Shown here: positions 9,801-62,613 of the stretch, in pieces
Numbering within the stretch: the first letter of the stretch is position 1
Layout: every line of letters begins with the position of its first letter
NCBI GenBank assembly: GCA_016215315.1
Contig: JACRKG010000040.1
Location: 3,128 to 67,127 of the forward strand
Direction: 5' to 3'
From: Candidatus Woesearchaeota archaeon
GTDB taxonomy: Archaea; Nanobdellota; Nanobdellia; Woesearchaeales; ARS49
DNA length: 64,000 bases
Translations under genes and position numbers: made by a program
The notes under the pieces: model-generated
Told to the model about the DNA's origin: nothing
Database searches by the model: none
The model's input: only the letters and a program-made list of their open reading frames with translations

Positions 9801-12800
9801 CTTCAAAAGGCATGGACTGAGCCAGTCCTAAAATTTTTCTTGCAAGCACTTTAAAAAAAGATTCGTGGCCATAAGCAGCCCTCCTAAAAGCTAACTCAAT
9901 TTCATTATTTAATTCTTGTCTGTGCTTAAAATTTTCTTCTTCAGCTTGCATACCTTCTAATGAAGGGGGAATTTTGTAGCCTTCCTCAAAAACCTCAATA
10001 CTATCATCAGATTGAATCTGTTGAATCTTATCAATAATTTCCTCAGATGTAGCATCAGGATTGTCATTTAGAAATCTATTAATTGCTTCAATTAAATAAA
10101 TATTATAATCTGATTCAACTTCTCCAAAAAGTTGTTCTAAATGTTTTCTTGCTTCTTCAAATTGTTTTTCATTAGAAACATCTTCTGTCAATGTTGCTTT
10201 TTGTGGTTGTACTGATTCTTGCATTAAAATTGGTGGTGGAACGCTAACAGATTTTCTCATTGAAAGAATTCTGGGCGTTTCGGTTCTAAATACTGGCTTC
10301 TCAGTTCTCATGCTTGTTTCTTTGGGTTTTTCTTTTACTTGTTTATTTTTTGATCTAATGACCAATATTACTGTTTTTCCTTTGCCTGCAGTCGTAATAC
10401 TTTTTTCTGGAAGTCCTATCATTTCCTGGTAGTCTTCATTAAATGAAAAAAATAGATTTCCTTCGCTCGTAATGCCCCACTCAACAGAATCACTTCTTTT
10501 TATATCAACAGTGCTAGTTTCACCTTCTGGACTAGTTTCTGAATCGCCTTCAGACGCGTATGTTCCAGCGCCTCTTAGTCCAACAGCATGCTGTCCAAAT
10601 TCTTCATAACTCATTCCTTCCTCTTTTGGAACTTTCCAGGTGCCTTCTTTATGACCTTTTTCTATTTTCCAACTAATAACTTCAACTTCTAAATCATCAT
10701 CAAGAATGGATTCAATCCTTTCTTTCATTTTTTGAACTGCTTCTTCAAGAGGTAATTCCATTAATTCAATTAAGAAGTCTGCATTCATTAAACCGGTATT
10801 TTCCATCCACTCAATAATTCTATCAACATGATAATTGAAATTTTCTTTTTGAGGCATTCCTTCAGGAAAAAAAATGCCGACAGGAGTAATGAATGGAATT
10901 TGCAAAGTTGCAGCAATATAATCTAGCAAATCTTTAAAATTCTGCATTTCTTTAGGAGGTGTTTCTGAAGAAACACCCTTGCTGGGCGCTTTGGCGTGTT
11001 CTGACTTTAATATTTCATTAGCTGTATTGACAAAACCTTTAGCAACACCATCCTTGAAAATGGGGAAATGATTAATTTTGGGTTTGTCAGAAATATAAAA
11101 CAATTCTGTTGGTTGTTTAGTTTGGATTGAGCTAACTTCTTTAGGTTTTGTGTTAAATAATCTTTCTAATTCTCGTTTGGCTGCTTTTCTAACAACTTCT
11201 GATGTGTGCTTGTTTAGTTCTTCAAGCACTTTTTGTTTTCTGTGCTTAACATTTTCTTCATCAACTGTCCATTCTGGAAATAGATTGTTTATTAAAGAAT
11301 AATGCGCGGAATCTTCTGAAAAGTTGTTCACTAATTGCAATACTTTCTTGAAATCTTCTCCTGAACCGTATTTTAACAAATAATGAAGATTCTTTGTTCT
11401 AAAGTATTCACTTAAATTTTCATCAAAAATAAACTCTCGTAATGCTTTGAGTAAAACTTGTTTAACTTGTTCTTTAAAAGATTCAGAATTTGTTATTTTA
11501 ATAAGTTGATCCAGATTAAAAAATCCGTTACTTACCTCTTCAAGAGAACTTTCTTTTTTTATTTGTTCTTCAGAGAAAGCCAAATGACGTAAATCTTGTT
11601 CGGATGGTGGTTCAGTTGACGTAATCTTTTTTTCTTTTGTGGGTACTTCTTCAAAACTCATAAAGTGTTCAACGATTTTGCGGGCTGATTCTCTGATGCT
11701 AGATTCCTCTTCAGGATTATTTGCTATTTCTTCAAGAACTTTTATGGCTTTTTCGTCATTAACAGATAATGTATTGATGATAATTTCCATTATTGCTTCA
11801 TAACTTAAGCCAGAATTATTTACTGCCTGTTCTATTAAATTTTCATCGTAATAAATTCTTCTTAATTCTTCAATGGATTTTTCAAAAGGAAGAAATGCTA
11901 CAAAATTTATGAATGCCGCGAAGTATTTCGGCAGCAAGAATGATTTTGCTAGATCGTAGTATTTTGCAAGTTCTGTTTCTTCAGTAGTGGAGACTTTTTT
12001 CTCCAAAAGTTCAAGCAAATAATCTCTTGCACGATAAGAATTACTTCTTATGTTGGCATTTTCTCCAGTTTCACTCCAATAATTGAATGTATTGATTAGC
12101 AAGATAAGCGTTCCAACATCTAAATTTACCTCAGTTAATTGATTTTTAATTGATGAGTTTTTGAAAGGTTCTCTTGCTATTCTTTCTTTTAATAATTCTT
12201 CTAAAATATCTAATGCGGGGTTTGATCCTATTTTTGCTAATATTTTTATTGCTAATTCTGTTCCTAAATTTTTTATTATTAATCTATATAATTCAATACT
12301 GTCTTCTTCAGTTATAACAACTGAAAGATCTTGAACTATTAGCAATAATCTTTGTTCATATTCAACTCCTCCAGATTTATTGAATAATATTTCTTTTAAG
12401 AACGCAATTCTTTGTTCGTAAGGGAGTCGTATTAAATCTTTTACTAAAAGAGAGCTATCAAAATTTATTAAATTTGTAATGGCTAAGTCTCTTATTTCTT
12501 TTTCTAGTTCTTGATTTAATGCGATCTGCATCAGTTCAGGATAGCTAAAACCTTTAGCACCTCTGTGGAGTGCTTCTTTTTTAATATCAAGGTCTATTCT
12601 TTGGTCGAGGATTATTTCTTGAAAGAAACTTGGTGCTAGAGTGCCTAATGCTTCAATAATAGTTCTTTTTGCATAACTGCTTAATTGAGGATTTAAGAGT
12701 AATTCTTTAAATTTGTTAGTTCCTTCTTTGTTTAATAATGCTCTTATTGCGCTAGATCTAACCTCTAAAGGAACATTCGTATCTGGTACAACTGAGATTA

Positions 12801-15800
12801 ATAAGTCTATTAATTCTGGTGTGTCTAGAAGTTCTTTGGCGAGCCATAATTGCTCTGCAATCAGAATTTTATAGTATTTGTGCAGTTCGGGTATATTTAG
12901 TAGTTTTTTTAAAACTTCAAATTTGCCGTTTTCACTTAAAATTTGTATGATTTGATCATTTATTTCATATAAGTCCAAATCATACGGTCTTTGTTTTATG
13001 ATATATTCAAGTGTCGATTCAGCTTCTGGAAATGTTTTAATAATTTCTCTTTTCTCGTATTTATTTAGTCTGTTTGAATCTAATATTTTCTCTAATATTT
13101 CAGTCCTTTCAACAGGACTTAATTCATACTTCAAAATTTCTTCTTTAAAAAATTTGGCAAATGATCCTATGTTCTCAAAACTTTGCAAATTAATAATTAA
13201 ACCTATAAACCATGATAAGAATTTTCTATTTTCTTCTTTGTGTATTGCTGTTTTCAAGAAATCCAGGGCAGAATATGCAAAATCTGCTTTTACTTGTCTG
13301 AGCTTCATGATTTTTTTAATTAAATATAATTTATTTAAATCGCTAACATTCGGATTTTTAAATAATTCAAATAAATGGTTGACATCGTACCAAGATAGTA
13401 TTTCAATAAAAGCACCCTCGTTGCCTTTTGTTACTGGAGTTATCAGTTCTTTTTTTATTAATTCCATTAATTCAGAGTGCTCTTTTAAAAATTGTTGTTG
13501 ATTGAGAAAAATGTACAAATGAATTATTATTCTTAATTTTATTTCATCACTGACATTTGGATTGAATAATAATTCTTTCAAATCTTGAAAGTTTGTTTCA
13601 TCACCTTTCGGTCCTGCCAAAACGTATAATGCACTTATTTTATCTTCAAGAGTTTTATCAGGATCTAGAACTGTTTTTTTTGCATCAGACGATTCTTCTT
13701 CAGGAGATTTAACTCCTGATATCCAATCCCAAGTTCTTCCAAACCATCCTTTTTGTTCAGATTTTAGTATTGATGTTGGCTGTTTTGATGGTATTTCTTG
13801 TACTGGGTATTTTTGTTCTGATTTTACAACTTTGATTTGTTTTGTGATTTCTCTTTTTCCTTCTTCAGAAATTCCTGCTGGAATTTCTCCGGGTGATTCT
13901 TCAACTGATGCTTGAATTTTTTCTCCGAAATTCAATTTCAATAATTTTAGTAAGCTTTCTCTTAGTCCGATGTCTTCTATTCTTGAAATTAAATCATAGA
14001 ATTCTTGTGTTGGTGGAATTCTTTTTTGAACTATTAAATTAACTAGTTGTGCAAGTAATTGTTTTGTTTTGTTTACTAATTTTGGTTTTGGTGCGTAAGG
14101 ACTATCTGAATCTGGAAGTAAATCAGTTATTTTTTTGATTTCTGTTAACGCGTTTATTAAATTAATATATGTTTCTTGAGCTTGCTCAGTACTTAATTCT
14201 AGTCTTGATAAAGAATTAATTTGTTCTTGAATGTATTCTAATAATTTGGTGACTTGATCGTCAATTTGTTGACTATAAATGTTTGATGGAAGCGTTCCTT
14301 CCGAGTATTTCTCGTTAATATTTGCATGGCTTAATAGTGTTGTAAGGGTTTTTAGTAATTCTGAAACATTGAGATTTTCTCCTCTTTCAAGAGCGCTTAG
14401 CAGGTAATAAAATCCGAAATCTTTTAGCAAGAAATAAGCTTTTGTTGTTAGTTCAGGAGGGAATTTAGTCATTTCTAATAATTGGTAAATTAAGTAAGCC
14501 ACTCCAGGACTTACGTTTGGTAACGTTCTTTCCTTCAGTCCTATTTCGAGTTGTGAAAATAATTCGTTCAATATTTGTATTGCTTTCTCTTTTTTCCTGT
14601 CATCAGGCAAGTACTTAATTATTTCAAGTAATAAGCCACCTTCTTTTATTCTATCTTGGTATAATTTGTGTAATTCGGTGAAAATTAGTGAAGAATATGC
14701 TTCTTTCGTTTTTTCTGTCATTAAGCTATAGACTTCAAGCAAATATTTTTCTTTAGCTTTAAGAGGTATTTCTGATATTGATGTAAAAAGATCAAACAAG
14801 TCATACAAGTAGTTTTGTCTGTGTTCTTCAGATAATAGCTTTGCTAATTCTAGCAAGTCCAAGTGAAAGTCCATTCCTAAACTTCTTGTAAGTTTAAGTC
14901 TTGTGGGTTCTTTTGTGCATTCTTTATCCCCGCATTTAGTGAATTCAAGTGTTTCGTATTCAGTTATGATGATTGAAGTTATGAAATAATTATATCGTTT
15001 ATATAAATTTAATAACATTTCAAAATAAGCTTGAACATCTCTTTCGTTTGATAATAAACTTATTCGGTCTTTGTAGCTTTGCAATCTTCCAAGCAGTCTT
15101 CTTGCAACAAAAGTATTTAGTTTTTCTTCATCGGTTAGTTCTGGATCAAACTCAGTTAGTGCGGGGAATTCTCCGCTGTTTATTAATTCGTCCATTAATT
15201 TCTTTGCTTCTTCAGGATTGTTATAGAATGAATTAATCATTTCATCAATTTCATTAATTAGTCCGGTTAATTCTGCTTTGACTTTTTGTTCATCAACAGG
15301 TTTCACTTCTTCTTTTGTTACTTCTTCAGTTTTTAATACTTCAACAGGCTTTCTTACTGTGCCGATTTGTGTTTTGAGAATCCTGGCGGATTCTCCGGGT
15401 GTTTTTTTGTCTACTGATTCTTTTTCAGCTCTTTTATTTTTGATTTCTTCAAATAATTTTTGTAAACTAATAATTGATTTTATTTTTTCAAATTCATTAT
15501 TTGCTCGTTCTTTGACAAATTGTTTTTGATCATCAGGCAAAGTCTCGTGTTTTTCTAAATATTCATTGATTTTTTGAATAAATTTGTCTGCAAATTCATT
15601 CTTTTCATCGTTATTGAAACCACTGAAAGAATTAATAAAACTTGAAGCATGTCTTGATAGCCTGAAAAGATTTTCTGGACTCAAATTATTTATGTTTTCT
15701 AAAAAGTAATTGAGCGTTTTGATAGTTACTTGTTTTAGAACTGTTTCTTCTTGAGTGTCTTTTACAAGAAGATGATAATACAAGAAATTATCTAAAAAGT

Positions 15801-18800
15801 CTTTAACCTCTTCCTCGGAAAGACTTGAATAATTTATGGCTAATAAATCTTCGTAAAGCGCTAAAATTATTCCTTTTTCTTCATCGCTTGCAGTGTCTTT
15901 TATATCATATGATGTTTTGTAAAGTGCAAGAAGGAATTGCGTTTTTTCGCTTTCAGTCAAACTCGATTTGTTTTCCTTGAAAAATGCAAAAAGCTTCAAG
16001 GATGCTTCTCTGTTTAGTTCTGTTTTTTCTTCTTTGGTTAGAAAGTTTCCAAACAAAACTCGATCAATTAATTTGAATAATTCTGAGACTTTTTCAGTTG
16101 ATAAAGTTTTTTTGTTATTCTCAAAATGTTCCAATAGTTTTCTTGCAATTTTTTGTATTAATTGTCTTCCTTCTTCTGAAACGCGATTTTCTCCTGTAAC
16201 ATCAACTAATTCTCCTTTTTGTATTGTTTGGTATGTTGGCATTAAATTTACTGAAAGAATATCGTCTAGCATCTTTAAAAGTTCAAAATTGGAAAATAAT
16301 TCTTCTGTGTGATTATCAAAAAGTTCGTTTAGCGAGTTGACAATTCTTTGTGCTAATTGATCTTCATTTTCTATGTTAAATTTGTAAAGGACCGTGTTTA
16401 AGAGTTGTAGAATGCCTAAAGATTCGGATAATGTTAACTGATTTTTTTGTGTTTCATATTTGAGTGATAAATCTTCAAATATGAACATGATATTTTCAGG
16501 ATTCATTGCTTCTGGAGAAATATTTGTTATTGTTTCTAAAGCATATAAAATTAGGTGTGTCTCGCCTAAAGCTAATGTGTCTTTGTTGTCGATATAGATT
16601 CCTAAAATTGTTTCAGCAAGCAAGGACAAATTCATCTCGCTTAATTTAACACTTTCTTTAAATCTTAGAAGCTCTAAACCTTGAGCGATTGTTAGCAAAG
16701 ACGTAACCAATTCATTGAAAGGCTTATTTTTTTCACGAATAAAAACATTAATCAGATCTTTAACTGTTTTTGCTAAATCTGGTTCCACAACTTTTTCAGG
16801 GGGTGCTTCTGGAGCTGCACTTTTTAGTATTGAAGGCAAATTAAATGGTTCTCTTCCAATGCGTGTTGCCAAAAATGGAGAAATTGTTTCCAATTTATAA
16901 CTTGTCTTTTTTGGTTTGTACTTCTCGAGTTTTTCTAAATCTTTTTGCACTTCTGCATCTTTTTCATACGTGCTTCTCATTTCGAGTTTGTTAATGAAGT
17001 TGTCTAGTATTATCGTTTTTTGTTCTTCACCGAGTTCTGAGCCGGACAATATTTCTTCGAGAAGTTCAATGATTTCGTTTCTTAAATCTCTATTTTCTAT
17101 TTGATATAAAAGTTCTAAAGATTCTACAACTTCTTTTATTACTCCATCAGGGATATTTTTTATCAGAATTATCTCTTTTAGTGCTTCAAGTGTTCCCGAA
17201 GGAGGAACTTCATAATCAGTTACTACGCCGCTGTTTAAAATGAAATTTCTAATTAATTTAATTTTTTGTGCTTCACTTAAAGCAGGATCCTGCATTTGTT
17301 CTGTGAGTGTTGGAATAACCTCTAGTTTAATTTTTATTTTTTTCCACAAATAATAAAATGAGTCGATAACATCATCCACAATAGGTATTCTTTCACTAGT
17401 CAATATTCCCGGATTCTTTTTTTCAGGAACGACTTCTTGTCCTTTTAGTTTGTCAATGATCTTTTTAACTTTTTCAAAGTCTCCTTCTTGTAATGCTTTT
17501 GCTAGTTCTGCTTTTCTTAATTCTGGTAAAGAAAGTTGGGAGCTTACTGCAGGCATTCTTCCTGGACCACATTTTGCGCAATCAACACACGTACCTTTTT
17601 CATTCACGTATTTTGCTTGAGCTAAAGGACATTTTATGCATTTAACACTCTCCAGAACTGCGTTTAAGATGGCAACTGATGCTTTGACTCCTGATAAGGA
17701 AGCTCTAACATTTTGGTGTGCTGCATAATTAACAAAAGTATTACCAACCATTGCTTTAAAGATAGAACTTCTAATTTCTCCACCAATACTATTTGCGTGT
17801 GCTTTTGCTTGGTTAATTCCTTTTTTGAATTCTTCATCGTAAAATTTAACTAATTCAATTTCTTGCTTTGCCTTATCTAAATAATTATTAACTCCGGGGC
17901 ATGCTGCTTGAGGCATTGCTTCTAAGACAGAATTTAAAGAATCAACAAGCACTTGGTTGTTAACATTGTCGAATGTTTTAATGCTGTCTTGTAAATCATA
18001 TTTTAGATTTGTTGGAGTGATTTTGTTCATTGCTTTCTTTAAGTTTTCCAAATCCCTTGATTTTTGTTTTTCTCCTCTTTGTTTTGATTGTCTTATGGCA
18101 AAATCAGTGTCCCATCCTTCAGCGTCGAATAATTTAGAAATAAACTCTTCAGTGAATGGTGAAGCTCCATATACTAAGTGTTTGTAAGCATCATTCAAAT
18201 TGCCGTTTGCTTGATTGATTTGGTTAACGGCATTCATTAAAGCAATAATTGCAGAATCATCAGAACAAGTGCTCAAGTATTGTTTTGCTTTTTCTATTTC
18301 TGGGTCTAATGGAGGCAAGCATTGACTTATTTTGTTTATTTCACCAACAGCGTTGTTATCTTCTTGAACTTTTATTAATCCTTCAATGAAATTCATTACT
18401 CCGCCGTAAATTTGGTCAAATAACCATTTTTCAGGATCTTGCTGAGTTGCCTTGCCGGTTAAAAGATTCCTTGCGGAATCTTTATTTTTTTGTTCTTCTT
18501 CATATTCTTTTATTGCGTCAGCAATATCAATAATAATTGGTTTTTCTTTGTCTTTTTTCACGAAAGGCATTAGTGGCCATTGAGGTATTGGTGCAATAGG
18601 CCAAACGCCAGAACTTAAAATGTATTTACAATCGATTCCTTTTGGTGGCTGTGGTTTGTCCATGCAGTCGGGGCATTGTTTTAAGCAAACAAGTCCTTGT
18701 TGTAAGTTTTCTAAGAAATTCTGCGGGGAGTTTTCCTTCGGAAAACTAGCAACAGATTCAGTTGAAGGAACACAGTCCTGTTTTACTGGATCGCAACCGT

Positions 18801-19797
18801 TAGGGCAGTAAGTACTTCTTAATCTGTTAATTGTTCCTTCGCAACTAAAATGATTAAGAACTTTATCATTGCAATAATCGGGGTAACTTTCTGCTTTTGT
18901 TTGAGTGTTTCCTTTTTCATCGAGCCATACTTCTCCAATTTCGATATGTAATGGATTTTTTAGTTCAATGCAGTAATTGCTTTTTTTACTTTTATCGAAA
19001 CAATTATTTTCTAAAGAATTACAACCATACTGGCATTCAACAATTTCTGAACCTTTACAAGTAAACTTTAACAGTTGATTCCCTTGGCATTTATTTTCTT
19101 GTAATGTTTGTCTTCCGTCAGGGTAAGAATATTTAGCACCTTCAACAGTATCTTCACAACTTACTTGTCTGCAAGCTCCATCAAAACAAGAAAACTCAAC
19201 TTTCTTGCCTGGAGAAACTTCTATTTCAGGACAATAAATATTTTCCTCCTTAGAAAAACCTTTTTCATCACAAGAGTATTCTTTTAAAAAAAGATTTCCG
19301 TTTTCGTCAAATAAACATATATCTTCTTCACGAAATGGCTCGTTAGTAATAGTAACACCTGTGACCTGACCTGGCACGAGAGCAGGCATAATTTCATCTC
19401 CATCGCTATCAGTACATGTTGATTCTACTAGTTCTTGTGTTGCTTTTGGACAATCTTCAGGACAAGTGAGTTCGTTTTCTGCTGGTTTATTGTACACTCC
19501 TTCTCTATCACAGTATTTATCCCCGCAAAAGCCTGTAAGAATTAGTTCTTTTGGAGGAATTTTAGGAGGTAATGATGGTTGAGTGGGTTTTTCTTGAGGA
19601 ATTTCGTAGACTGGCTGTGGAGTGTAGTATTCAGTTGGTGGTTGTATTGTTTGTAATTCTTGGTTGGTGGGTGGTGGGTTGAAATCTGAAGGGAAATCAC
19701 TAACAGGTCTTCCTGTAATTGTGTAAGAAAGTGCGGTAGTTAAGGGTAGATTTATGAATAGTAAAATGACTAAAATAGCAAAAATTTTTTGATTCAT
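3823..19797 (-). CDS. Giant (5324 aa) secreted multidomain protein: signal peptide, Pro linker, Cys-rich repeats, helical/HEAT-like repeats, two transglutaminase-like domains, C-terminal HEEGH zincin-like domain
   Basis: Uninterrupted 15,975-nt ORF; SD GAGGT and TATA-like TTTATAAA upstream; GxxVCR..GHxW..DLDPT twice; HEEGH at 4411-4425. Confidence 0.9.
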   Translation of the reverse strand: MNQKIFAILVILLFINLPLTTALSYTITGRPVSDFPSDFNPPPTNQELQTIQPPTEYYTPQPVYEIPQEKPTQPSLPPKIPPKELILTGFCGDKYCDREGVYNKPAENELTCPEDCPKATQELVESTCTDSDGDEIMPALVPGQVTGVTITNEPFREEDICLFDENGNLFLKEYSCDEKGFSKEENIYCPEIEVSPGKKVEFSCFDGACRQVSCEDTVEGAKYSYPDGRQTLQENKCQGNQLLKFTCKGSEIVECQYGCNSLENNCFDKSKKSNYCIELKNPLHIEIGEVWLDEKGNTQTKAESYPDYCNDKVLNHFSCEGTINRLRSTYCPNGCDPVKQDCVPSTESVASFPKENSPQNFLENLQQGLVCLKQCPDCMDKPQPPKGIDCKYILSSGVWPIAPIPQWPLMPFVKKDKEKPIIIDIADAIKEYEEEQKNKDSARNLLTGKATQQDPEKWLFDQIYGGVMNFIEGLIKVQEDNNAVGEINKISQCLPPLDPEIEKAKQYLSTCSDDSAIIALMNAVNQINQANGNLNDAYKHLVYGASPFTEEFISKLFDAEGWDTDFAIRQSKQRGEKQKSRDLENLKKAMNKITPTNLKYDLQDSIKTFDNVNNQVLVDSLNSVLEAMPQAACPGVNNYLDKAKQEIELVKFYDEEFKKGINQAKAHANSIGGEIRSSIFKAMVGNTFVNYAAHQNVRASLSGVKASVAILNAVLESVKCIKCPLAQAKYVNEKGTCVDCAKCGPGRMPAVSSQLSLPELRKAELAKALQEGDFEKVKKIIDKLKGQEVVPEKKNPGILTSERIPIVDDVIDSFYYLWKKIKIKLEVIPTLTEQMQDPALSEAQKIKLIRNFILNSGVVTDYEVPPSGTLEALKEIILIKNIPDGVIKEVVESLELLYQIENRDLRNEIIELLEEILSGSELGEEQKTIILDNFINKLEMRSTYEKDAEVQKDLEKLEKYKPKKTSYKLETISPFLATRIGREPFNLPSILKSAAPEAPPEKVVEPDLAKTVKDLINVFIREKNKPFNELVTSLLTIAQGLELLRFKESVKLSEMNLSLLAETILGIYIDNKDTLALGETHLILYALETITNISPEAMNPENIMFIFEDLSLKYETQKNQLTLSESLGILQLLNTVLYKFNIENEDQLAQRIVNSLNELFDNHTEELFSNFELLKMLDDILSVNLMPTYQTIQKGELVDVTGENRVSEEGRQLIQKIARKLLEHFENNKKTLSTEKVSELFKLIDRVLFGNFLTKEEKTELNREASLKLFAFFKENKSSLTESEKTQFLLALYKTSYDIKDTASDEEKGIILALYEDLLAINYSSLSEEEVKDFLDNFLYYHLLVKDTQEETVLKQVTIKTLNYFLENINNLSPENLFRLSRHASSFINSFSGFNNDEKNEFADKFIQKINEYLEKHETLPDDQKQFVKERANNEFEKIKSIISLQKLFEEIKNKRAEKESVDKKTPGESARILKTQIGTVRKPVEVLKTEEVTKEEVKPVDEQKVKAELTGLINEIDEMINSFYNNPEEAKKLMDELINSGEFPALTEFDPELTDEEKLNTFVARRLLGRLQSYKDRISLLSNERDVQAYFEMLLNLYKRYNYFITSIIITEYETLEFTKCGDKECTKEPTRLKLTRSLGMDFHLDLLELAKLLSEEHRQNYLYDLFDLFTSISEIPLKAKEKYLLEVYSLMTEKTKEAYSSLIFTELHKLYQDRIKEGGLLLEIIKYLPDDRKKEKAIQILNELFSQLEIGLKERTLPNVSPGVAYLIYQLLEMTKFPPELTTKAYFLLKDFGFYYLLSALERGENLNVSELLKTLTTLLSHANINEKYSEGTLPSNIYSQQIDDQVTKLLEYIQEQINSLSRLELSTEQAQETYINLINALTEIKKITDLLPDSDSPYAPKPKLVNKTKQLLAQLVNLIVQKRIPPTQEFYDLISRIEDIGLRESLLKLLKLNFGEKIQASVEESPGEIPAGISEEGKREITKQIKVVKSEQKYPVQEIPSKQPTSILKSEQKGWFGRTWDWISGVKSPEEESSDAKKTVLDPDKTLEDKISALYVLAGPKGDETNFQDLKELLFNPNVSDEIKLRIIIHLYIFLNQQQFLKEHSELMELIKKELITPVTKGNEGAFIEILSWYDVNHLFELFKNPNVSDLNKLYLIKKIMKLRQVKADFAYSALDFLKTAIHKEENRKFLSWFIGLIINLQSFENIGSFAKFFKEEILKYELSPVERTEILEKILDSNRLNKYEKREIIKTFPEAESTLEYIIKQRPYDLDLYEINDQIIQILSENGKFEVLKKLLNIPELHKYYKILIAEQLWLAKELLDTPELIDLLISVVPDTNVPLEVRSSAIRALLNKEGTNKFKELLLNPQLSSYAKRTIIEALGTLAPSFFQEIILDQRIDLDIKKEALHRGAKGFSYPELMQIALNQELEKEIRDLAITNLINFDSSLLVKDLIRLPYEQRIAFLKEILFNKSGGVEYEQRLLLIVQDLSVVITEEDSIELYRLIIKNLGTELAIKILAKIGSNPALDILEELLKERIAREPFKNSSIKNQLTEVNLDVGTLILLINTFNYWSETGENANIRSNSYRARDYLLELLEKKVSTTEETELAKYYDLAKSFLLPKYFAAFINFVAFLPFEKSIEELRRIYYDENLIEQAVNNSGLSYEAIMEIIINTLSVNDEKAIKVLEEIANNPEEESSIRESARKIVEHFMSFEEVPTKEKKITSTEPPSEQDLRHLAFSEEQIKKESSLEEVSNGFFNLDQLIKITNSESFKEQVKQVLLKALREFIFDENLSEYFRTKNLHYLLKYGSGEDFKKVLQLVNNFSEDSAHYSLINNLFPEWTVDEENVKHRKQKVLEELNKHTSEVVRKAAKRELERLFNTKPKEVSSIQTKQPTELFYISDKPKINHFPIFKDGVAKGFVNTANEILKSEHAKAPSKGVSSETPPKEMQNFKDLLDYIAATLQIPFITPVGIFFPEGMPQKENFNYHVDRIIEWMENTGLMNADFLIELMELPLEEAVQKMKERIESILDDDLEVEVISWKIEKGHKEGTWKVPKEEGMSYEEFGQHAVGLRGAGTYASEGDSETSPEGETSTVDIKRSDSVEWGITSEGNLFFSFNEDYQEMIGLPEKSITTAGKGKTVILVIRSKNKQVKEKPKETSMRTEKPVFRTETPRILSMRKSVSVPPPILMQESVQPQKATLTEDVSNEKQFEEARKHLEQLFGEVESDYNIYLIEAINRFLNDNPDATSEEIIDKIQQIQSDDSIEVFEEGYKIPPSLEGMQAEEENFKHRQELNNEIELAFRRAAYGHESFFKVLARKILGLAQSMPFEDPYTVNEPNTKAFIEIVNNIKADNDLILVKKIYEFVTKILPIFERSDVMCRNFETLITQGKAVCRERSPLLVYALKLRGIDAKIITSNAVGEGAGHMWVTVTINVNNKLVEFDLDPTWYREFIPLHERFKGVEEERARETFEAIWKQYEGVQGKRYITEPEKASEIPKETSMRTEKPKEVSSTILKTEVPGFLAMQKPMGASIPILKQEEQKYTQTKPTLDEINRRCKEDKESLMREALERDFYKDILDLCDGKNLSEELTAKVVERLRSEYASNGSLFRHYIYQFGSKVFFSEIQKIYSEDKTKLSLSEIYFLVNFGYDDPKISESIASFLMNVSLDKELNENFRIEVQKLSINFFFYLRDYFEQKKENPDFTSVEENTYDNWAAELIKELDNKIDDVKYVLLASQIKHNPEGMLDFSVKFSVLTRNFGELSLSEILTLTEAVANHYKIFRNDSFVNNFLIQIESSEIPQENKDDIIRILITHLSLLNLQKETLPWFNPEALIESIAKNSSEAVKNYANTVLILMKKAEIVNFEENTVLIDQVLLFIKDNIALFGDKAISSEKIIDFIQQIQGEDWVTGLHSKSSLETVQDLEKRKYYSYGIFDIYKFSYEGSSFIGSLLRTLSKIITFNYEDYKNPYTPQEPLSAAFLDKIRHLESKNELELVMKIYSLAEDMVKVYELHSEFCKPMEEVLLKGNGVCRDFAALLYHALKERGIDVKYVDGFTEKITEGHIWVRVRITVENIPMEFDLDPTGYKEFFPLHPREFKIDNEQAMNYFKEQAFEQPVFLAMQKPMGAQIPILKQFAPQPPQVIPQQEEQKSNVEEQVNKLFDDFLMLLKQSPNEIYSISLFNAFNQIINQYLQDLRNNGNQEEQQKASLMIYKKFTQLRESKPEIFEVVKRNYLSLTTNLFNQMSPDDKKQFADQLFNSLLEQYKETGEQYIINNAIPSIMDFLVEKKIEKVKMILDLILTQIEGNEQNWNTYYLPELVRMLGYPAEATEKVYELVKKETSKWEYQDAGACYQMRARLITLLIHSQIENKNQEIQEINSMVVAKLKRLPENMLDRAHYGPLYNELMSDIEALPELQPLAVDLYELLMNIFFQRMKDNFQRPDDDSFKQMLYNELPSLLKLLPESMKQEKTEELFNILILLANGKRSLIEDSRQKIRQNKINELDQNKLGEYRRLLAALLNVVETLGFPKEKTETVYRLVKELFTIMSNTQVNWKMEFNEFEKMVKIIDVLGLDKHKEYPTILRTDNINSAESVGIGYMIGDWRTMIKVYIMNQIAMFGENNFFGIIEIAKLFTKISDFVLSIPPELEELNLDKKKEALSDVLNNILKAQNKFEKREIPEEFFVQLIKSINSLPLDEQTKKEFLLEYFKESLKELSTKEQTYSLLKYFLENLADEQKEFVKQSILEFIEKRYSSDNVIDMKAALYDLARIGFDDKPLLDDFFQKLSNDQILSFVSFEEFAQLFSFFNFELIMNKLVELKKQQEQTYSETTKAFIDVLYAVLNKKLNSAFEEGNKEFLTYVRFSIQSNEIELLGELIKSAWSDLSEEEKTKILEFSKQKYLPSNITQYVEFSNNLPDEVALQIIKELYENEQEFDKVINALTKERGLFENDAEGAYEYAIGIIIDELIKIKGENSVAFIKKIIKDNKDNSKIVERARKKLETLSEPRKTEDVKEGLKGQKEELKVIKKIKSTVKFPEIEQPAQKPVQKSAEILKSEEKDLTQEKTIEEKSSLEIPEPEVPSLELRPLFENFQKITEQRFEEKGGFQNLGESLAAYYFGQIFMVLNHEEGHAHVTEAYAAQYDLGINVGFGTLTTNKNMPDLGLFKGLTRQNARLTEKQYESITLGGFAASQELYCRVNEGLVQNDDGSFENRVGHWIAFTAGMDFPVHCLESYTSDVVNYGDIDYLIKQGYETDIKRALVADVIGKAPDLYWHFTKGLGMETSRPDWFSFRIPGTNFRLKISARAFIDPQNRIIAPYVEGEITSE

Positions 19798-57313: not shown

Positions 57314-58390
57314 CTATCTATCAAATAATTCTGCTGCAGATTTGAGCAAGGTAATTTTCTTCTTCTTTGAATATTGAATAATTTGTTTTAATCTCTTGCC
57401 GACAATATTGGACTTTTTTCTTGCTTCTAGAACTGTTTTGCCCTCTCTTTCTATCAACGCCTGTAAAAATCCGCCGCAGTTTAACACAAAATCAGGAATA
57501 TATGTGATTCCTTTTTTTAATAATATTTTTTCATCATCGAATTCATTCTCAAGAGGATTATTCGCTCCTCCAGCAATGATTTTACATTTCAATTTTGGCA
57601 ATGTCTTTTCATTAATTACTGCACCCAACGCACATGGAGCAAGTATGTCAACTTTCTGAAAAAGTATTTTTTTGGGAGGTATAATCTTTACGCCTATTTT
57701 TCTTGCTTTTTTGTAATTTGATTTTATTACATCTGCTGCCATAACATCACAGCCTTTTTTGACTAGTAATTGTGCGAGGGGGAAACCTACTGCTCCAAGT
57801 CCTTGTATTGCAACACTACATTTTTGCAAAGGTTTATTTAAAATTTCTTCACAAATAACTTCAAATCCGTGAATCATACCTTCTGCAGTATTTTCTCCAG
57901 TACTTCCCAATCCTTTTTCTAAGTGAGATAATGAATCAACATGATCTGTTTTTGAGGCTATTTGTTTTCCATCTTTCATAACAAACCCTAAATCAATTGC
58001 TGTTTTGAATAATCCTTTATGCATCTGAATGAAATCTCCTATTGATTGTAAAAAAAGAGTATTTTTCTTCTGATTTGCCAATACAACTGCTTTACATCCG
58101 CCTTCATTTACTCCTAGAACATTAGCTTTTCTAGTCATTGCTCTTGCTAATTTTAGAGCATCTTGCAAAGCAATGTCTGCGTCTTGATGGGCAAATCTAG
58201 TTCCTCCAGAAGCAGAAACATTTTTGCTTAATTTTCCTGATTTTTCTCTTTTTTCGGGGATAGAATCAACAACCCAAACTAATTTAAGATCTGTTTTAGG
58301 ATTATAGTGAAACGTGATTTGCCTACAACCCTCTTTCTTTAGTATTTTAAAAACGTCTTTTGCGGTTTTAACATGCCATCTCTGTTTCAT
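57314..58390 (-). CDS. Glu/Leu/Phe/Val dehydrogenase (leucine dehydrogenase-like)
   Basis: GGTRF, LARAMTRK, GGCKAV, IQGLGAVG, PCALGA, GGANN, PDFVLNCGG. Confidence 0.9.
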   Translation of the reverse strand: MKQRWHVKTAKDVFKILKKEGCRQITFHYNPKTDLKLVWVVDSIPEKREKSGKLSKNVSASGGTRFAHQDADIALQDALKLARAMTRKANVLGVNEGGCKAVVLANQKKNTLFLQSIGDFIQMHKGLFKTAIDLGFVMKDGKQIASKTDHVDSLSHLEKGLGSTGENTAEGMIHGFEVICEEILNKPLQKCSVAIQGLGAVGFPLAQLLVKKGCDVMAADVIKSNYKKARKIGVKIIPPKKILFQKVDILAPCALGAVINEKTLPKLKCKIIAGGANNPLENEFDDEKILLKKGITYIPDFVLNCGGFLQALIEREGKTVLEARKKSNIVGKRLKQIIQYSKKKKITLLKSAAELFDR

Positions 58391-58412: not shown

Positions 58413-59681
58413 TTATATAAACTTTTGTGAATGCCTGTTTTTATTCTTCATTTGTCCTTCTATTTCTTTGATTAATTTTTCCGCAATATCATTTTTATCA
58501 TGTGCTTCAATTATTTCCCCTCCCATACTTTCGGATTTTACTATGTATGCTGTATGCGCATCTTTCATGTCTTCATTTCTATTAGCAACAACGATTTGAT
58601 AATGCTTAGCTCTTTCTCTTGCAACGCTTAACAAATCTTCTTGACTTATTTTTGCCATTAGCTTGAACGTCACCATGAATAAATCAGGATTTAGTTCTCT
58701 GACTTCATTAATTATTTTCTTCGTTTGCTTGAATTTTATTTCTAATTCACCTAATGAAGGAATTTTACCGTCAAATTTTTGCACTGGTGTGTAATCTGCT
58801 ACTGCTGCGCTAAAAATTGCAGCATTATAACTTGTGTTACTCAATTCTTTGAATACATTGTCTCTGTATTCATCATAGTCTTCATGATAAATTGTTTTCA
58901 AGTAAGAAGGTGCTTTTAGCCCTGTCTTTCCTAGCAATAAAGTAACATCATGCCCTCGGTGATATGCTTCTTTAGCAATTTCAACAGCTAAAGCTCCTTT
59001 GAATTTATTTGTTATGATTCGTACGTCATCTATTTTCACCGGTGTTGCGCCGCCAGTTACTAAAATTTTTGAAGGTTTTTTGTTTAGGATATTGCAAGTT
59101 TCTGCAACAATATCTTCTATTTTAGGAATTTTTGCTTTATGTTCTTCAAGTCTTGGTTCTATTATGTGAATTCCGTAATCAGAGTTAAGCTCATTACTGA
59201 GATTCTTTTGTAAAAAAGGATTTTCGTAAAGGGATTCATGCATTGTTGGGGCTAAAATAGCAGGTTTTAATTTTTCTGTTCCAGAAAAATCGGGATTTAC
59301 TTGATTTGAATAAATTTTGTTAGTTCCTAAAGCGCTAGCAATTAAAGTTGTAACAGGATCATCTGCTATTCCTGAATATATTTTGTTAATAGTGTTTAGT
59401 GTTGCCGGAGCAACTAAAACAATATCTTCACTACAAATATGTTCTGCTAAACCGCTTAATTCTTTAACAACTGGTTTGCCCGTAGCCCATTCTAATGCTG
59501 TTTCTCCAATGAATTTTAGTGCAGAAGAAGTAACATAAGCAGTAACCTTAGCACCATAACGACGCAAATGTCTTGCTATTTTTGGTGTTTCAATTGCAGC
59601 AATACCTCCAGTAACACATAAAGCCACTTTTTTCCCTTCCAAATAATTTCCTAAATTTTTAACTTGTAAGTCTTGGTTCAT
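58413..59681 (-). CDS. coaBC: CoaBC-like bifunctional flavoprotein (HFCD decarboxylase + PPC synthetase domains)
   Basis: CVTGGIAA, APATLNTINK, PTMH, EEHKAK, LVTGGAT...DDVR.ITN, SAAVADY, FK. Confidence 0.8.
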   Translation of the reverse strand: MNQDLQVKNLGNYLEGKKVALCVTGGIAAIETPKIARHLRRYGAKVTAYVTSSALKFIGETALEWATGKPVVKELSGLAEHICSEDIVLVAPATLNTINKIYSGIADDPVTTLIASALGTNKIYSNQVNPDFSGTEKLKPAILAPTMHESLYENPFLQKNLSNELNSDYGIHIIEPRLEEHKAKIPKIEDIVAETCNILNKKPSKILVTGGATPVKIDDVRIITNKFKGALAVEIAKEAYHRGHDVTLLLGKTGLKAPSYLKTIYHEDYDEYRDNVFKELSNTSYNAAIFSAAVADYTPVQKFDGKIPSLGELEIKFKQTKKIINEVRELNPDLFMVTFKLMAKISQEDLLSVARERAKHYQIVVANRNEDMKDAHTAYIVKSESMGGEIIEAHDKNDIAEKLIKEIEGQMKNKNRHSQKFI

Positions 59682-59693
59682 TTTTCCCTCCTT

Positions 59694-60590
59694 CTAGCTA
59701 CAAAAATCTTCATAGCTATCATATGCTTCATACCAACTACTACAACCACAGTCATCATAATAGCTGTAAAGTGGTGAGATTCTTTTTCTTTCATTTGAAA
59801 GAATTAATTTCTTTGCGTTTTTGTAATAAACTTGTTTTTTATCCTTTTCAGAAAAATCTTTCATTGCGTTTTCAATTACAAAAATAGAATCCTCATATGT
59901 TTCAACAGGAAAGTCGGTGCCAAATAATAATTTCTCAGGACCACACTCATTCAGGAATTCTTTTGTCAAGTCAACATGAGATTTAAGTAGCGCACTGGAA
60001 TCTGCATAAATTGTTTTATTTCTTTTCACAACTTCAATGAGCTCCTCAGTAAAAGGTCTTGCGAGGTGACAAAGAATCATCTTTTGTCCATTTTGTGCAA
60101 TAAACTCGAGTTCCGAAGGTTTAACTTCTCCAGCAATAAAACGGTTATCTTTTCTACCGTGCGTGTAACCCATGTGAAACATTAAAGGTAAATTATATTT
60201 TTCTGTTAGTTTTAGGACTTGTTTGAAGTTTTCTCCGTGTAAATCAATGTGTTGATAGCTTGTGTAAATTTTTATTCCGCTTAATTCATTTCTTTCAGCT
60301 AATTCTTCTAATTCGTTATAACCTTGGTAAAAATATTTTTCAAAGTCAAGGCTTCCAAAAAGTAGAAATTCATGAAATGGAGTTTCCAAATTATAATTTT
60401 TTATCCAATCTAGCATTCGGAAATTACTAATGCCTGTGCCTTTGTGAGGGAAATAAGTTGCCAGTAAAACGGTTTTTTCAACGTGATGTTTTATCATTTC
60501 TTGTTCTAAAGTTTTGATTGTTGCATCTTTGTAAGTAATTCCTTCAACGGGTCTGTTTGTTACATGTGCATGGATGTCTATTTTTATCAT
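59694..60590 (-). CDS. Amidohydrolase (TIM-barrel, amidohydrolase_2-like) with an aromatic/acidic C-terminal tail
   Basis: DIHAH, FHMG, CHL, LFGTDFP, NAKKL. Confidence 0.82.
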   Translation of the reverse strand: MIKIDIHAHVTNRPVEGITYKDATIKTLEQEMIKHHVEKTVLLATYFPHKGTGISNFRMLDWIKNYNLETPFHEFLLFGSLDFEKYFYQGYNELEELAERNELSGIKIYTSYQHIDLHGENFKQVLKLTEKYNLPLMFHMGYTHGRKDNRFIAGEVKPSELEFIAQNGQKMILCHLARPFTEELIEVVKRNKTIYADSSALLKSHVDLTKEFLNECGPEKLLFGTDFPVETYEDSIFVIENAMKDFSEKDKKQVYYKNAKKLILSNERKRISPLYSYYDDCGCSSWYEAYDSYEDFCS

Positions 60591-61651
60591 TCTAAGTAAC
60601 CTCCGTGTATTTCTGGAATCATTCTTGGAAAATACTGAATATTTTCTAATTTAGCAAGATTATTTGCTAACACCAGCGATCCATGACCTCTTAAGTTAAC
60701 TGCAAAATTTGTTTTAGTTTTATTGGGAAAAAGCTTAACAACTTCATCAAATTCTTCTAATGCACCACAAGGAACTATGTTGTCAGTAAAAGGAGCATCT
60801 TTAACGTAAACATGCGCATGAAGCATATAATTAACATTATTATAGTGCTCGTAAAGTTTAACTTGTATTGGTGTATCAACAGAAGGCTTGTTTTCACCTT
60901 GGTATTGCACAGGTAATTCTATTTTTACTGGAACAAATGATAAAGCGCTTATTTCTCTTTTGTCAACATTTCTTTTTGAAACAAAAATTATCTTATCTTT
61001 TCTAAAAGAAGGAAACCCATTCTCACATCTGAAAGAAGCATTACCAAAAAATCTATTTACCGCCTCAGGATGTGCATGAATTAATTCATGAAATTTAGTT
61101 GCATAATTTTTTACTAACGTAAAAAATTCAGTTTCATTTGGTGTTTTTATTTCTCCATTTACTTGTTCACTTTGAACTCTGCTAAAATTAAGCAATTCTT
61201 GTGTTCTTTTCTTCAAGGCTTTACCAACCAAATTGAAATCTTTAGAATAATCAAGGAAAACATTGCCTAAAGGGTCAGCAACTCTTCCTCTGTAGCGGTC
61301 ATTTAATTGGGAGAATTCAACAAATAAATTGCTTTTATTGTCTAAAGCGCGATAAATTAGATCAGCAAAAGAATATTCACCGTTGTTTCTCTTTGAAGTT
61401 ACTAGTATGCACTCTTTATTTTTCTCTTTTATTTCTTTTATTAATTTAGGTTTCTCATTATCGACATCAGCAAACCAGTAAATAAGTTTGAAATCAGTAA
61501 CTGATTCAAGAATTTTTTCTAAATCACTGAAGCTGCCTCCATTAATGTACTGCATTTCTTCTGTTTTTACTTGTTCATATATTTGCGCAGCGATCTTTGA
61601 AGGTCTTCCATTATTATCATCAAATTTTCCCGCAATGTATAAAGTTTTCAT
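60587..61651 (-). CDS. Class II aldolase/adducin domain protein with an unknown N-terminal domain
   Basis: GNASFRC, SVDTP, MLHAHVY, NLRGHGSLV. Confidence 0.75.
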   Translation of the reverse strand: MKTLYIAGKFDDNNGRPSKIAAQIYEQVKTEEMQYINGGSFSDLEKILESVTDFKLIYWFADVDNEKPKLIKEIKEKNKECILVTSKRNNGEYSFADLIYRALDNKSNLFVEFSQLNDRYRGRVADPLGNVFLDYSKDFNLVGKALKKRTQELLNFSRVQSEQVNGEIKTPNETEFFTLVKNYATKFHELIHAHPEAVNRFFGNASFRCENGFPSFRKDKIIFVSKRNVDKREISALSFVPVKIELPVQYQGENKPSVDTPIQVKLYEHYNNVNYMLHAHVYVKDAPFTDNIVPCGALEEFDEVVKLFPNKTKTNFAVNLRGHGSLVLANNLAKLENIQYFPRMIPEIHGGYLE

Positions 61652-61732
61652 AACATACAGTAATCGGTATATTAATATAAACTATTTCTATAAATCTTTA
61701 AACTTCTATAAATCTTAGAAAAGCTTAAATAC

Positions 61733-61786
61733 TAGTTTATAGTTTACAGGACGTACTATAAACTTTAAACCATAAACTATAAACTT
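61733..61786. repeat. Heptamer repeat arranged as a hairpin
   Basis: AGTTTATAGTTTA / TAAACTATAAACT 13-bp inverted repeat around CAGGACGTACTAT. Confidence 0.8.
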
Positions 61787-61803
61787 AATGAGGATTAATT
61801 ATT

Positions 61804-62613
61804 ATGAAGGTAATCGAACGCAGCTTACAAGAAATAGGCCAATCTTTGCTAGTTACTTTGCCTAAATCTTGGACTAAAACACTTAATTTGAAGAAAGGTT
61901 CGCCAATTAAGATGACTATTTCGGAAGCAGGCAACTTGTTGATTGCTCCTGAGTTTGTTAAAAAAGAAGAAAAGAAAGAAACTACCATCCCTTTTGATGA
62001 TTTCTTTTCTAAACGATTTTTTAGCGCTTATTTTGAAGGTAACGAAAAAATAACTATTACTTTTGATAAAGAAGCCAGAATTCATTAGTTTTTGAACAAA
62101 TTCATGAATGTACAAATAATTGAGGAGACGAGCAACAAAATTGTTGTTAAAGTATTCAAAATTGATGAGTTAAGCATTGAGGAGTGCTTGAAAAGAATGT
62201 TTCATTTATCTCTCAACATGTTTGATGAAGTAGGAAATAATAACAGATTAAAAGAATTAAAAAATTCATTAGTTAAATTCTATTACTTGCTAGTTATGCA
62301 GATTAGAAGATTTCTGGCTGAAGGCAAATATACTGAAGAAAACCAAATTTCACTGTTAAGAGCAATGGATTGCAGAATGATTGCTGAAAAGATGGAAAAA
62401 ATAAGCGATATTTTTTTTCTCACAGAAAAAAATAAGTTGATGAAAGAAATTAAGGAATTTTACTCAAAAGCGTTTAATAACTGTTTTAATAATGAATTTG
62501 TAAAATCATTAGAGTTAATGAAAGAAAAAAAAGAATTGTTTAAAAAAACTAAAGATAAAGATATGCTCTTGCTGCTTTCATATGCAAATGATATTGGAAT
62601 GCTTACAAAATAG
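61804..62613 (+). pseudogene. AbrB + PhoU-like phosphate uptake regulator split by an in-frame TAG
   Basis: RSLQEIGQSLLVTLPKSW AbrB N-terminus; TAG at 62086-88 with the same frame continuing FLNKFMNVQIIEETSNKIVVK. Confidence 0.7.

Follow-up and report, generated by a model that had tools for sequence, protein, structure and literature searches.

A conserved archaeal operon linking a variant CoaBC to a predicted CoaB-fold/AraD-like protein and a putative metal hydrolase

The stretch of DNA analyzed here, referred to below as the window, comprises 64,000 nucleotides (nt) from a Candidatus Woesearchaeota archaeon (assembly GCA_016215315.1, contig JACRKG010000040.1, positions 3,128 to 67,127 of the forward strand). 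Three adjacent genes on its minus strand, here termed G1, G2, and coaBC, encode a protein predicted to combine a CoaB fold with a class II aldolase-like domain, a putative metal hydrolase, and a variant of CoaBC, the bifunctional protein of coenzyme A (CoA) synthesis. These genes and their surroundings are as follows.

60587-61651, minus strand, 354 amino acids: G1, predicted two-domain enzyme with a CoaB-fold N-terminal half and a class II aldolase/AraD-like C-terminal half
59694-60590, minus strand, 298 amino acids: G2, predicted Amidohydro_2-type (beta/alpha)8 metal hydrolase
58413-59681, minus strand, 422 amino acids: variant bifunctional CoaBC with Pfam Flavoprotein and DFP domains
61652-61803, 152 nt: control region separating G1 from the divergent regulator
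61804-62613, plus strand: AbrB(SpoVT)-PhoU regulator, divergently transcribed and split in the window by an in-frame TAG
57314-58390, minus strand: ELFV-family amino-acid dehydrogenase (ScyB/Leu-Val dehydrogenase-like), from Pfam and NCBIfam matches

As read from the sequence, the stop codon of G1 and the start codon of G2 share an ATGA, and G2 is separated from coaBC by a 12-nt spacer containing GGAGG. The co-oriented trio, the ATGA overlap, and the short gap with a Shine-Dalgarno sequence reported in an initial annotation of the stretch were thus all present. That annotation had proposed the trio as a possible uncharacterized pathway and had asked whether it was conserved elsewhere. A scan for G1 loci, with one genome taken per species, yielded 55 loci. 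In 11 other DPANN loci, G1, G2, and CoaBC were found together with a divergent AbrB-PhoU gene, the order varying among G2-G1-CoaBC, G1-G2-CoaBC, and CoaBC-G1. At least 12 gut Bacilli/Tenericutes-type genomes carry a coaC-coaB-G1 operon divergent from a LysR gene, in which the stop codon of coaB overlaps the start of G1. Recurrence of the same genes in the 11 DPANN loci, and of G1 with coaB and coaC in bacteria, places the arrangement far beyond chance, and the conserved synteny led us to reject the reading of the trio as chance neighbors. G1, G2, and CoaBC are a conserved functional unit. Of the earlier proposal, it stood that the trio is a unit of which two members are uncharacterized; the pathway itself, from the evidence below, is probably not a new one and would be that of CoA synthesis.

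The unit is not of fixed composition. Two further DPANN genomes have AbrB-PhoU divergent from G2-CoaBC in the absence of G1. G1 is also sporadic: a sample of the phylum had it in 1 of 201 genomes, versus approximately 8 of 201 with CoaB, and the bacterial order in 1 of 81, versus 14 of 81 with CoaB. Three of the DPANN loci have an ATP-dependent DNA ligase gene near the module.

The window CoaBC has a Flavoprotein domain (PF02441, residues 17-196) and a DFP domain (PF04127, residues 204-372), and scored 247.5 bits against the NCBIfam equivalog model TIGR00521, passing the cut-off of 219.7. In the CoaB half, ITN, AAVADY, and GKIPS are retained, but NxSSG reads NIFxG. In the CoaC half, His81 is kept within an AEHIC sequence and corresponds in the alignment to the His of KHISLA in canonical CoaC. 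The PXMNXXMW motif reads PTMHESLY, with Asn replaced by His148, Met by Leu, and Trp by Tyr, and this His and Leu are invariant within the clade of CoaBC proteins linked to G2. The Cys-bearing clamp LACGxxGxG is deleted, and there is no invariant Cys in the CoaC half. The variant is only ~28-29% identical to canonical DPANN CoaBCs, which, together with the CoaCs linked to G1 in bacteria, formed the comparison set and display KHISLA, PAMNxxMY/W, and LACGxxGxG. The His, Asn, and Met of phosphopantothenoylcysteine decarboxylase (PPCDC) are needed for oxidation/decarboxylation and the Cys for the reductive second half-reaction, the reference residues of AtHal3a being catalytic His90 and redox-active Cys175 (PMC9604783). 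The initial annotation had found the pairing of CoaBC with such enzymes unusual; the CoaBC itself is not quite ordinary either, with a decarboxylase half lacking both the Cys clamp and the Asn and Met of PXMNXXMW.

In all five genomes tested, only one CoaB (DFP) domain and one HFCD flavoprotein domain were found per genome, both in the operon gene. The window genome (G000), which is 94.8% complete, was checked for further genes of CoA synthesis as had been suggested with the initial annotation, and a second cluster (locus L077) was located.

Contig C41, 6170-9845: type II pantothenate kinase (PanK-II), phosphopantetheine adenylyltransferase-dephospho-CoA kinase fusion (PPAT-DPCK), HD-like protein, and double-Lrp regulator

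The type II (Fumble) PanK of 275 amino acids and the PPAT-DPCK fusion of 373 amino acids are translationally coupled by a start/stop overlap. With them lie the genes for the conserved HD-like protein (217 amino acids) and the double-Lrp regulator, which is divergent. In a second genome (G058), the HD-like protein forms the C-terminal part of a 621-amino-acid fusion with PPAT-DPCK, and in two others (G201 and G215) the two genes are adjacent. We found no archaeal phosphopantothenate synthetase (PPS; PoK/PPS-type), archaeal DPCK, PanB, or PanC in the window genome, which fits the reported departure of Nanoarchaeota/DPANN from the archaeal PoK/PPS route (PMC6650551). Judged by these matches, the five steps from pantothenate are nominally present, and steps 2 and 3 have no candidate other than the operon CoaBC. 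This place as the sole candidate in a nominally complete pathway argues against its having been repurposed. The repurposing toward nucleotide modification put forward in the initial annotation is not supported: this is the only CoaB/HFCD gene, PanK-II and PPAT-DPCK need it, and its product passes TIGR00521. Replacement of PanK by G1 was also considered and is not supported among the DPANN genomes, as PanK-II-like genes occur only in the window genome, which has G1, and in one without it (G064), and a further genome (G058) has neither.

G2 matched Pfam Amidohydro_2 (PF04909) with 65.8 bits against a cut-off of 26.4, and no NCBIfam model fitted it. In alignment A4, residues H7, H9, K107, H139, and D226 are invariant and H175 is nearly so; the invariant Lys107 suggests a bridged binuclear site. 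The AlphaFold2 model of G2 (mean predicted local distance difference test score, pLDDT, 81.8) had as fold neighbors 3irs (Z 24.2), 3cjp (Z 23.0), and 4dlf (Z 22.6), followed by LigI-like proteins, decarboxylases, and TatD. The nearest neighbors are uncharacterized and lactonase-, decarboxylase-, and TatD-type proteins follow at similar Z, so that the fold does not single out one chemistry for G2. In the 201-genome sample of the phylum, which includes genomes with canonical CoaBC, G2 orthologues (at least 50% identity) were found in 3 of the 3 genomes with the variant CoaBC and in no others, and a pairing this strict suggests that G2 is an obligate helper of the CoaBC without the Cys. The window G2 lacks a segment of ~9 residues that other homologues have, and it ends in a Tyr/Asp/Cys-rich tail of 35 residues (about residues 264-298; window 59694-59800) that is absent from all ten aligned homologues. 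The notion that this tail is a conserved peptide resembling an HFCD substrate was rejected, as the homologues end ~35 residues earlier.

G1 belongs to a family with more than 1300 full-length homologues. Pfam detected only Aldolase_II (PF00596), on residues 195-280, with 40.2 bits against a cut-off of 22.2, and there was no match to Pfam DFP (PF04127) in the N-terminal half. An AlphaFold2 model built on 28 homologues had high confidence (pLDDT 90.8). Residues 1-157 aligned with CoaB of Streptococcus pneumoniae (2gk4_A) at Z 17.0 over 151 residues, with a root-mean-square deviation (rmsd) of 2.4, and gave Z 12-16 with phosphopantothenoylcysteine synthetase (PPCS) of E. coli, mycobacteria, yeast, and human. 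All PPCS structures outranked the next fold class, CheY-like proteins, which reached Z 10.2, and a search of 48,161 chains made independently of Foldseek gave the same ranking. The domain has invariant residues of its own, namely G8, S18, NGG37-39, W59, K69, K75, K87, N108, and D126. A profile of it alone retrieved 670 clusters at 50% identity, nearly all of which carry the aldolase half as well and a few of which form part of giant proteins that also have a methyltransferase domain. In the model, residues 168-349 fold like a class II aldolase, with Z ~14.7 against FucA/AraD-type chains. D259, H278, H280, and H323 of this domain, an Asp plus three-His metal site, are invariant, and the G1 profile aligns with E. 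coli AraD (1jdi) on KKPSxDTP...HxH, which is the metal and phosphate site. Invariant residues total 44 across the protein. G1 scored 16-26 bits against the NCBIfam equivalog models araD, mtnB, and FucA, below all of their cut-offs of 137-389. G1 is thus modeled as a CoaB-fold domain joined to an AraD-like domain with a metal and phosphate site. The initial annotation had missed both the cryptic CoaB-fold domain in the aldolase gene and the largely phage-borne nature of the G1 family.

G1 showed no match to, or fold of, pantothenate kinase types I, II, or III by Pfam, NCBIfam, or fold comparison. As it lies outside the P-loop and ASKHA kinase families, any kinase role of G1 would be analogous rather than homologous. 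No Pfam domain was detected in the N- or C-terminal extensions of longer G1 homologues, and a PHROGs search returned no match for G1, G2, or CoaBC. A prediction of the complex between G1 and the CoaB half of the window CoaBC scored 0.00, which is evidence neither for nor against an interaction.

Certain relatives of the G1-bearing Bacilli carry a different fusion of 381 amino acids, in which a CoaC-like Flavoprotein domain is joined to the same shortened aldolase-like domain.

L130, 4887-6032 (genome G226): CoaC-like/aldolase-like fusion
L131 (genome G231): CoaC-like/aldolase-like fusion

Its CoaC-like domain lacks the catalytic His, Asn, and Cys, and its gene is flanked by those of SpoU, two other methyltransferases, and a thioredoxin-reductase-like protein. 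By its domain composition, this second fusion appears to link the aldolase-like domain to the CoA pathway. In another genome (G293), a 225-amino-acid aldolase-like open reading frame (ORF) follows coaC-coaB.

Other contexts of G1 and of coaB in bacteria were also observed. G1-less Bacilli loci (L124-L128, from G226, G231, G242, G258, and G264) have LysR divergent from a gene for a protein of ~290 amino acids (A3), followed by coaB. A3 had no Pfam or PDB sequence match; it gave a nitrilase-like impression from motifs seen by eye. An uncultured bacterium has an ORF of more than 3835 amino acids (L047, 3533-15037) in which a SAM-methyltransferase domain precedes a complete G1 unit, and the 990-amino-acid protein P0121 resembles this giant protein. 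The G1 gene of Siminovitchia (L016/L018, 1874-13558) is part of an element that bears an integrase gene and three DNA methyltransferase genes, and a NUDIX gene stands immediately upstream of G1. A phage-like bacterial region (L052) has the order NUDIX...G1-CoaC-like-HD-CoaB.

The ESM-Atlas clusters of G1 are mostly viral, and IMG/VR contributed 42 loci with G1. Full-length homologues with ~30% identity are encoded by Lak megaphages of 540-550 kb and by a 462-kb phage, the latter encoding CoaB and CoaE elsewhere in its genome.

L058 (Prevotella phage Lak-B5), 7968-9122: G1 homologue
L059 (LR756500.1), 8001-9140: G1 homologue

About half of the 42 viral loci have RNA-related genes at most 6 kb from G1, and tRNA genes are present in 13. 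The genes counted near G1 were those for Rnl1 (6), Rnl2-like or ligase-like proteins (7), CCA-adding enzyme (5), metallophosphoesterase (3), tRNA_bind (2), TROVE/Ro60 (2), LigA (2), and ATP DNA ligase (2). A link of phage G1 to CoA is seen in PPAT-DPCK, which adjoins G1 in two viral loci, in the order G1-CoaC-like-HD-CoaB of L052, and in 44 virus records carrying G1, of which 4 encode CoaB and 5 CoaE. The TROVE/Ro60-like genes lie within ~4 kb of G1 on two viral contigs (L100, 10288-11955; L107, 3349-5001).

Upstream of G1 in the window, the control region holds a 13-nt direct repeat, TTCTATAAATCTT, present twice with a spacing of 18 nt, and a perfect 13-nt inverted repeat, AGTTTATAGTTTA/TAAACTATAAACT. 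The AbrB-PhoU gene beyond it is broken by the TAG at 62086-62088. It is intact in the 11 related DPANN loci, where one ORF encodes 284-302 amino acids, as judged by tblastn with both halves and by ORF lengths, and Pfam assigned MazE/AbrB-like and PhoU domains to the orthologue in L003. The operon may therefore be deregulated in this genome, or the TAG may reflect stop readthrough or a sequencing error. Downstream, the ELFV dehydrogenase gene is a fourth co-oriented gene starting 22 nt after coaBC; it was rejected as a member of the module, being absent from every related locus. Elsewhere on the minus strand of the window, a single ORF encodes 5324 amino acids (3823-19797); giant proteins are typical of DPANN/CPR (candidate phyla radiation) genomes.

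The reading that we favor, with a probability of about 0.5, is that of a variant 4'-phosphopantetheine/CoA operon in which a divergent CoaBC acts with two conserved accessory enzymes under divergent AbrB-PhoU control. The operon would cover the segment of CoA synthesis from 4'-phosphopantothenate to 4'-phosphopantetheine. G2 would be an obligate helper of the Cys-less CoaBC that completes or tidies the decarboxylation chemistry, or else acts on an amide or lactone to free a substrate such as cysteine or a pantothenate-type acid. G1 would be an optional, horizontally mobile add-on. Its two domain ancestries related to CoA synthesis, its coupling to coaB, and the CoaC-like fusion suggest a mobile enzyme that uses a nucleotide as cosubstrate and has an intermediate of phosphopantoyl type as its substrate. 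Nucleotide binding would fall to the CoaB-like half, and the AraD-like site would bind the "phosphopantoyl" head of the intermediates, a phospho-(alpha-hydroxy-carbonyl) group, with G1 making, recycling, or proofreading the substrate of CoaB. In its most concrete version, the step would be an NTP-dependent (nucleoside triphosphate-dependent) one of pantothenate/pantetheine kinase-like or ligase-like type. A pantothenate-kinase-like role would explain the coaBC and PPAT-DPCK contexts, yet complementarity tests did not support it.

A more ambitious combination seems unlikely to us as a whole. In it, G1 would be a new class of NTP-dependent enzyme that supplies or recycles the CoaB substrate, and the Cys- and Asn-less CoaBC would work only with G2, as a two-protein phosphopantothenoylcysteine decarboxylase. 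G1 may, for example, represent a fourth type of pantothenate/pantetheine kinase that is not homologous to the others, built from a CoaB-derived nucleotide-binding and an AraD-derived phosphopantoyl-binding domain. If so, phages would be spreading G1 as an auxiliary gene that boosts CoA.

Several observations weigh against the variant CoA operon as we read it. G1 is dispensable for relatives that bear CoaBC, occurring in only one of the eight CoaB-positive genomes of the phylum sample and one of the 14 of the bacterial order. The likeness of its N-terminal domain to CoaB was weak by hhalign (E 0.006, probability 6%), and the canonical CoaB sequence motifs are absent from that domain (alignment A5). 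Replacement of PanK by G1 lacks complementarity: the window genome has both, and all 24 CoaB-positive gut Bacilli genomes lack PanK I, II, and III whether G1 is present or not. In the 42 viral loci, G1 is not adjacent to coaBC and is accompanied instead by RNA ligase, CCA-adding, tRNA-binding, Ro60-type, and tRNA genes. The counts of CoaB and CoaE in virus records carrying G1, encoded there away from G1, have no phage baseline. The biochemical roles of G1 and G2 are, moreover, ones that we infer.

The viral neighborhoods are what most invites a different view, that G1 is primarily directed at RNA or nucleotides. It would then serve in end-healing or nucleotide processing with ligases and CCA-adding enzymes, in phage counter-defense or RNA repair, and G1 would stand beside coaBC in cells on account of a nucleotide in common (CTP) or a second use, with no part in the chemistry of CoA intermediates. 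This would accommodate the RNA-related and tRNA genes at the viral loci, the ATP-dependent DNA ligase near the three DPANN modules, and the NUDIX gene adjoining G1 in the Siminovitchia elements and in L052. It would also suit the SpoU and other methyltransferase genes flanking the CoaC-aldolase fusion and the fusion to methyltransferase domains in giant proteins. Proximity within 6 kb is weak evidence, however, because cofactor, tRNA, and RNA-repair auxiliary genes often share regions in phages, and some phages with G1 carry CoaB, CoaE, or PPAT-DPCK. The cellular operons point instead to coaB and coaC, through translational coupling, shared and dedicated regulators in both archaea and bacteria, and the CoaC-like fusion, and the AraD-like pocket is of a kind that suits small phosphorylated hydroxy-carbonyl compounds. 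We consider a primary role on RNA or nucleotides, with this explanation of the cellular operons, improbable, though it is the main rival to our reading.

The initial annotation's own reading, in which a CoaBC-like enzyme and its partners were repurposed for a different cofactor or for nucleotide or nucleic-acid modification instead of CoA, draws on the state of the CoaC half. Without Cys, Asn, and Met, this half resembles HFCD proteins whose reaction ends with the enethiol, or else Hal3/Vhs3 of yeast, which are non-catalytic (PMC9604783). The altered phosphate loop of the CoaB half, the rarity of CoaBC in the phylum (~8 of 201 genomes), and the phage-like L052 cluster joining G1, CoaC-like, HD, CoaB, and NUDIX are in keeping with it. 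But the gene is the only CoaB/HFCD gene where PanK-II and/or PPAT-DPCK are encoded, and these would otherwise be useless; the product passes the equivalog model and retains ITN, AAVADY, and KIPS in its CoaB half, and the G1-containing bacterial operons use a fully canonical CoaC. Repurposing keeps a small chance because the CoaC site is truly aberrant. G1 could alternatively be a non-catalytic or regulatory subunit, its CoaB-like half docking on the CoaB dimer or CoaBC dodecamer and its aldolase-like half sensing CoA, acyl-CoA, or a sugar phosphate. The CoaB fold dimerizes, and the copy in G1 lacks catalytic CoaB motifs; translational coupling to coaB, the alternative aldolase-like/CoaC-like fusion devoid of catalytic residues, and the dispensability of G1 in relatives would all agree with such a subunit. 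The 44 invariant residues, which include the full metal triad plus Asp and the phosphate-binding motif, argue for catalysis, and CoaB is absent from 11 of the 12 G1-carrying virus records that are at least 90% complete, which leaves a regulatory G1 very doubtful.

CoA synthesis is universal. For bacteria, eukaryotes, and archaea alike, the assignment of its steps is regarded as complete (PMC6650551). Three features described here do not fit current assignments: a conserved CoaBC variant that lacks residues held essential for the decarboxylase and always occurs with an uncharacterized hydrolase; a large protein family, much of it phage-borne, that hides a predicted CoaB-fold domain and is genetically tied to coaB and coaC in two domains of life; and genomes, of DPANN and of gut Bacilli, with coaB and coaC yet no recognizable route to 4'-phosphopantothenate. 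Answers could close gaps in what is understood of CoA metabolism in gut bacteria and in symbionts with reduced genomes, and could account for the presence of these genes in jumbo phages. The pathway is known, and the Cys-less CoaBC with G2, the CoaB-fold/AraD-like G1 family, and the PanK-less genomes with coaB and coaC appear to be undescribed in the literature searched. Our literature search returned nothing relevant on a class II aldolase with pantothenate kinase or CoaBC, or with phage RNA ligase.

Among characterized systems, the window CoaBC is closest to the CoaBC (Dfp) of E. coli and Methanocaldococcus jannaschii, with which it shares the Flavoprotein-DFP architecture, the equivalog score, the catalytic His, and the ITN, AAVADY, and K-I-x-S motifs, and it is the one copy in a genome that also encodes PanK and PPAT-DPCK. 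It differs from them in PTMHESLY, the clamp deletion, and NIFxG, and in always adjoining G2. Retention of the catalytic His with loss of Cys and/or of PXMNXXMW residues is also seen in yeast Hal3/Vhs3 and the HFCD enzymes EpiD and MrsD (PMC9604783). In yeast PPCDC, however, the Cab3 protomer supplies the missing residues, whereas none of the five genomes tested has a second HFCD gene, and enzymes of the EpiD type have peptide substrates and no fused CoaB.

G2 has in common with the Amidohydro_2 enzymes (LigI, the COG3618 lactonase 4dlf, LigW, 2,3-DHBD, ACMSD, and TatD) a predicted barrel matched at Z 19-24 and HxH...H...D ligands, but its best matches, 3irs and 3cjp, are uncharacterized proteins, and a strict tie to a variant CoaBC is not known for any characterized member. 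The N-terminal domain of G1 resembles CoaB/PPCS (2gk4, 1u7z of E. coli, and human 1p9o) in modeled fold (Z 12-17 over ~150 residues, rmsd 2.4-2.8), in a phosphate-loop-like G-G-[KR]-x-S before helix 1, and, by a weak alignment, in a PK..K/(S/F)K motif. Unlike CoaB, it is ~60 residues shorter and fused to a class II aldolase-like domain, and GGTxE, NxSSG, AAVADY, and KxKK-type motifs are not recognizable in it. The C-terminal domain shares with AraD, FucA, and MtnB (PF00596) the fold (Z ~13-14.7) and the Asp plus three-His site, its KKPS-x-DTP being most AraD-like. It is set apart from these enzymes by being shortened, with about half of the Pfam profile matched, and by always being fused to a CoaB-like or, in some bacteria, a CoaC-like domain.

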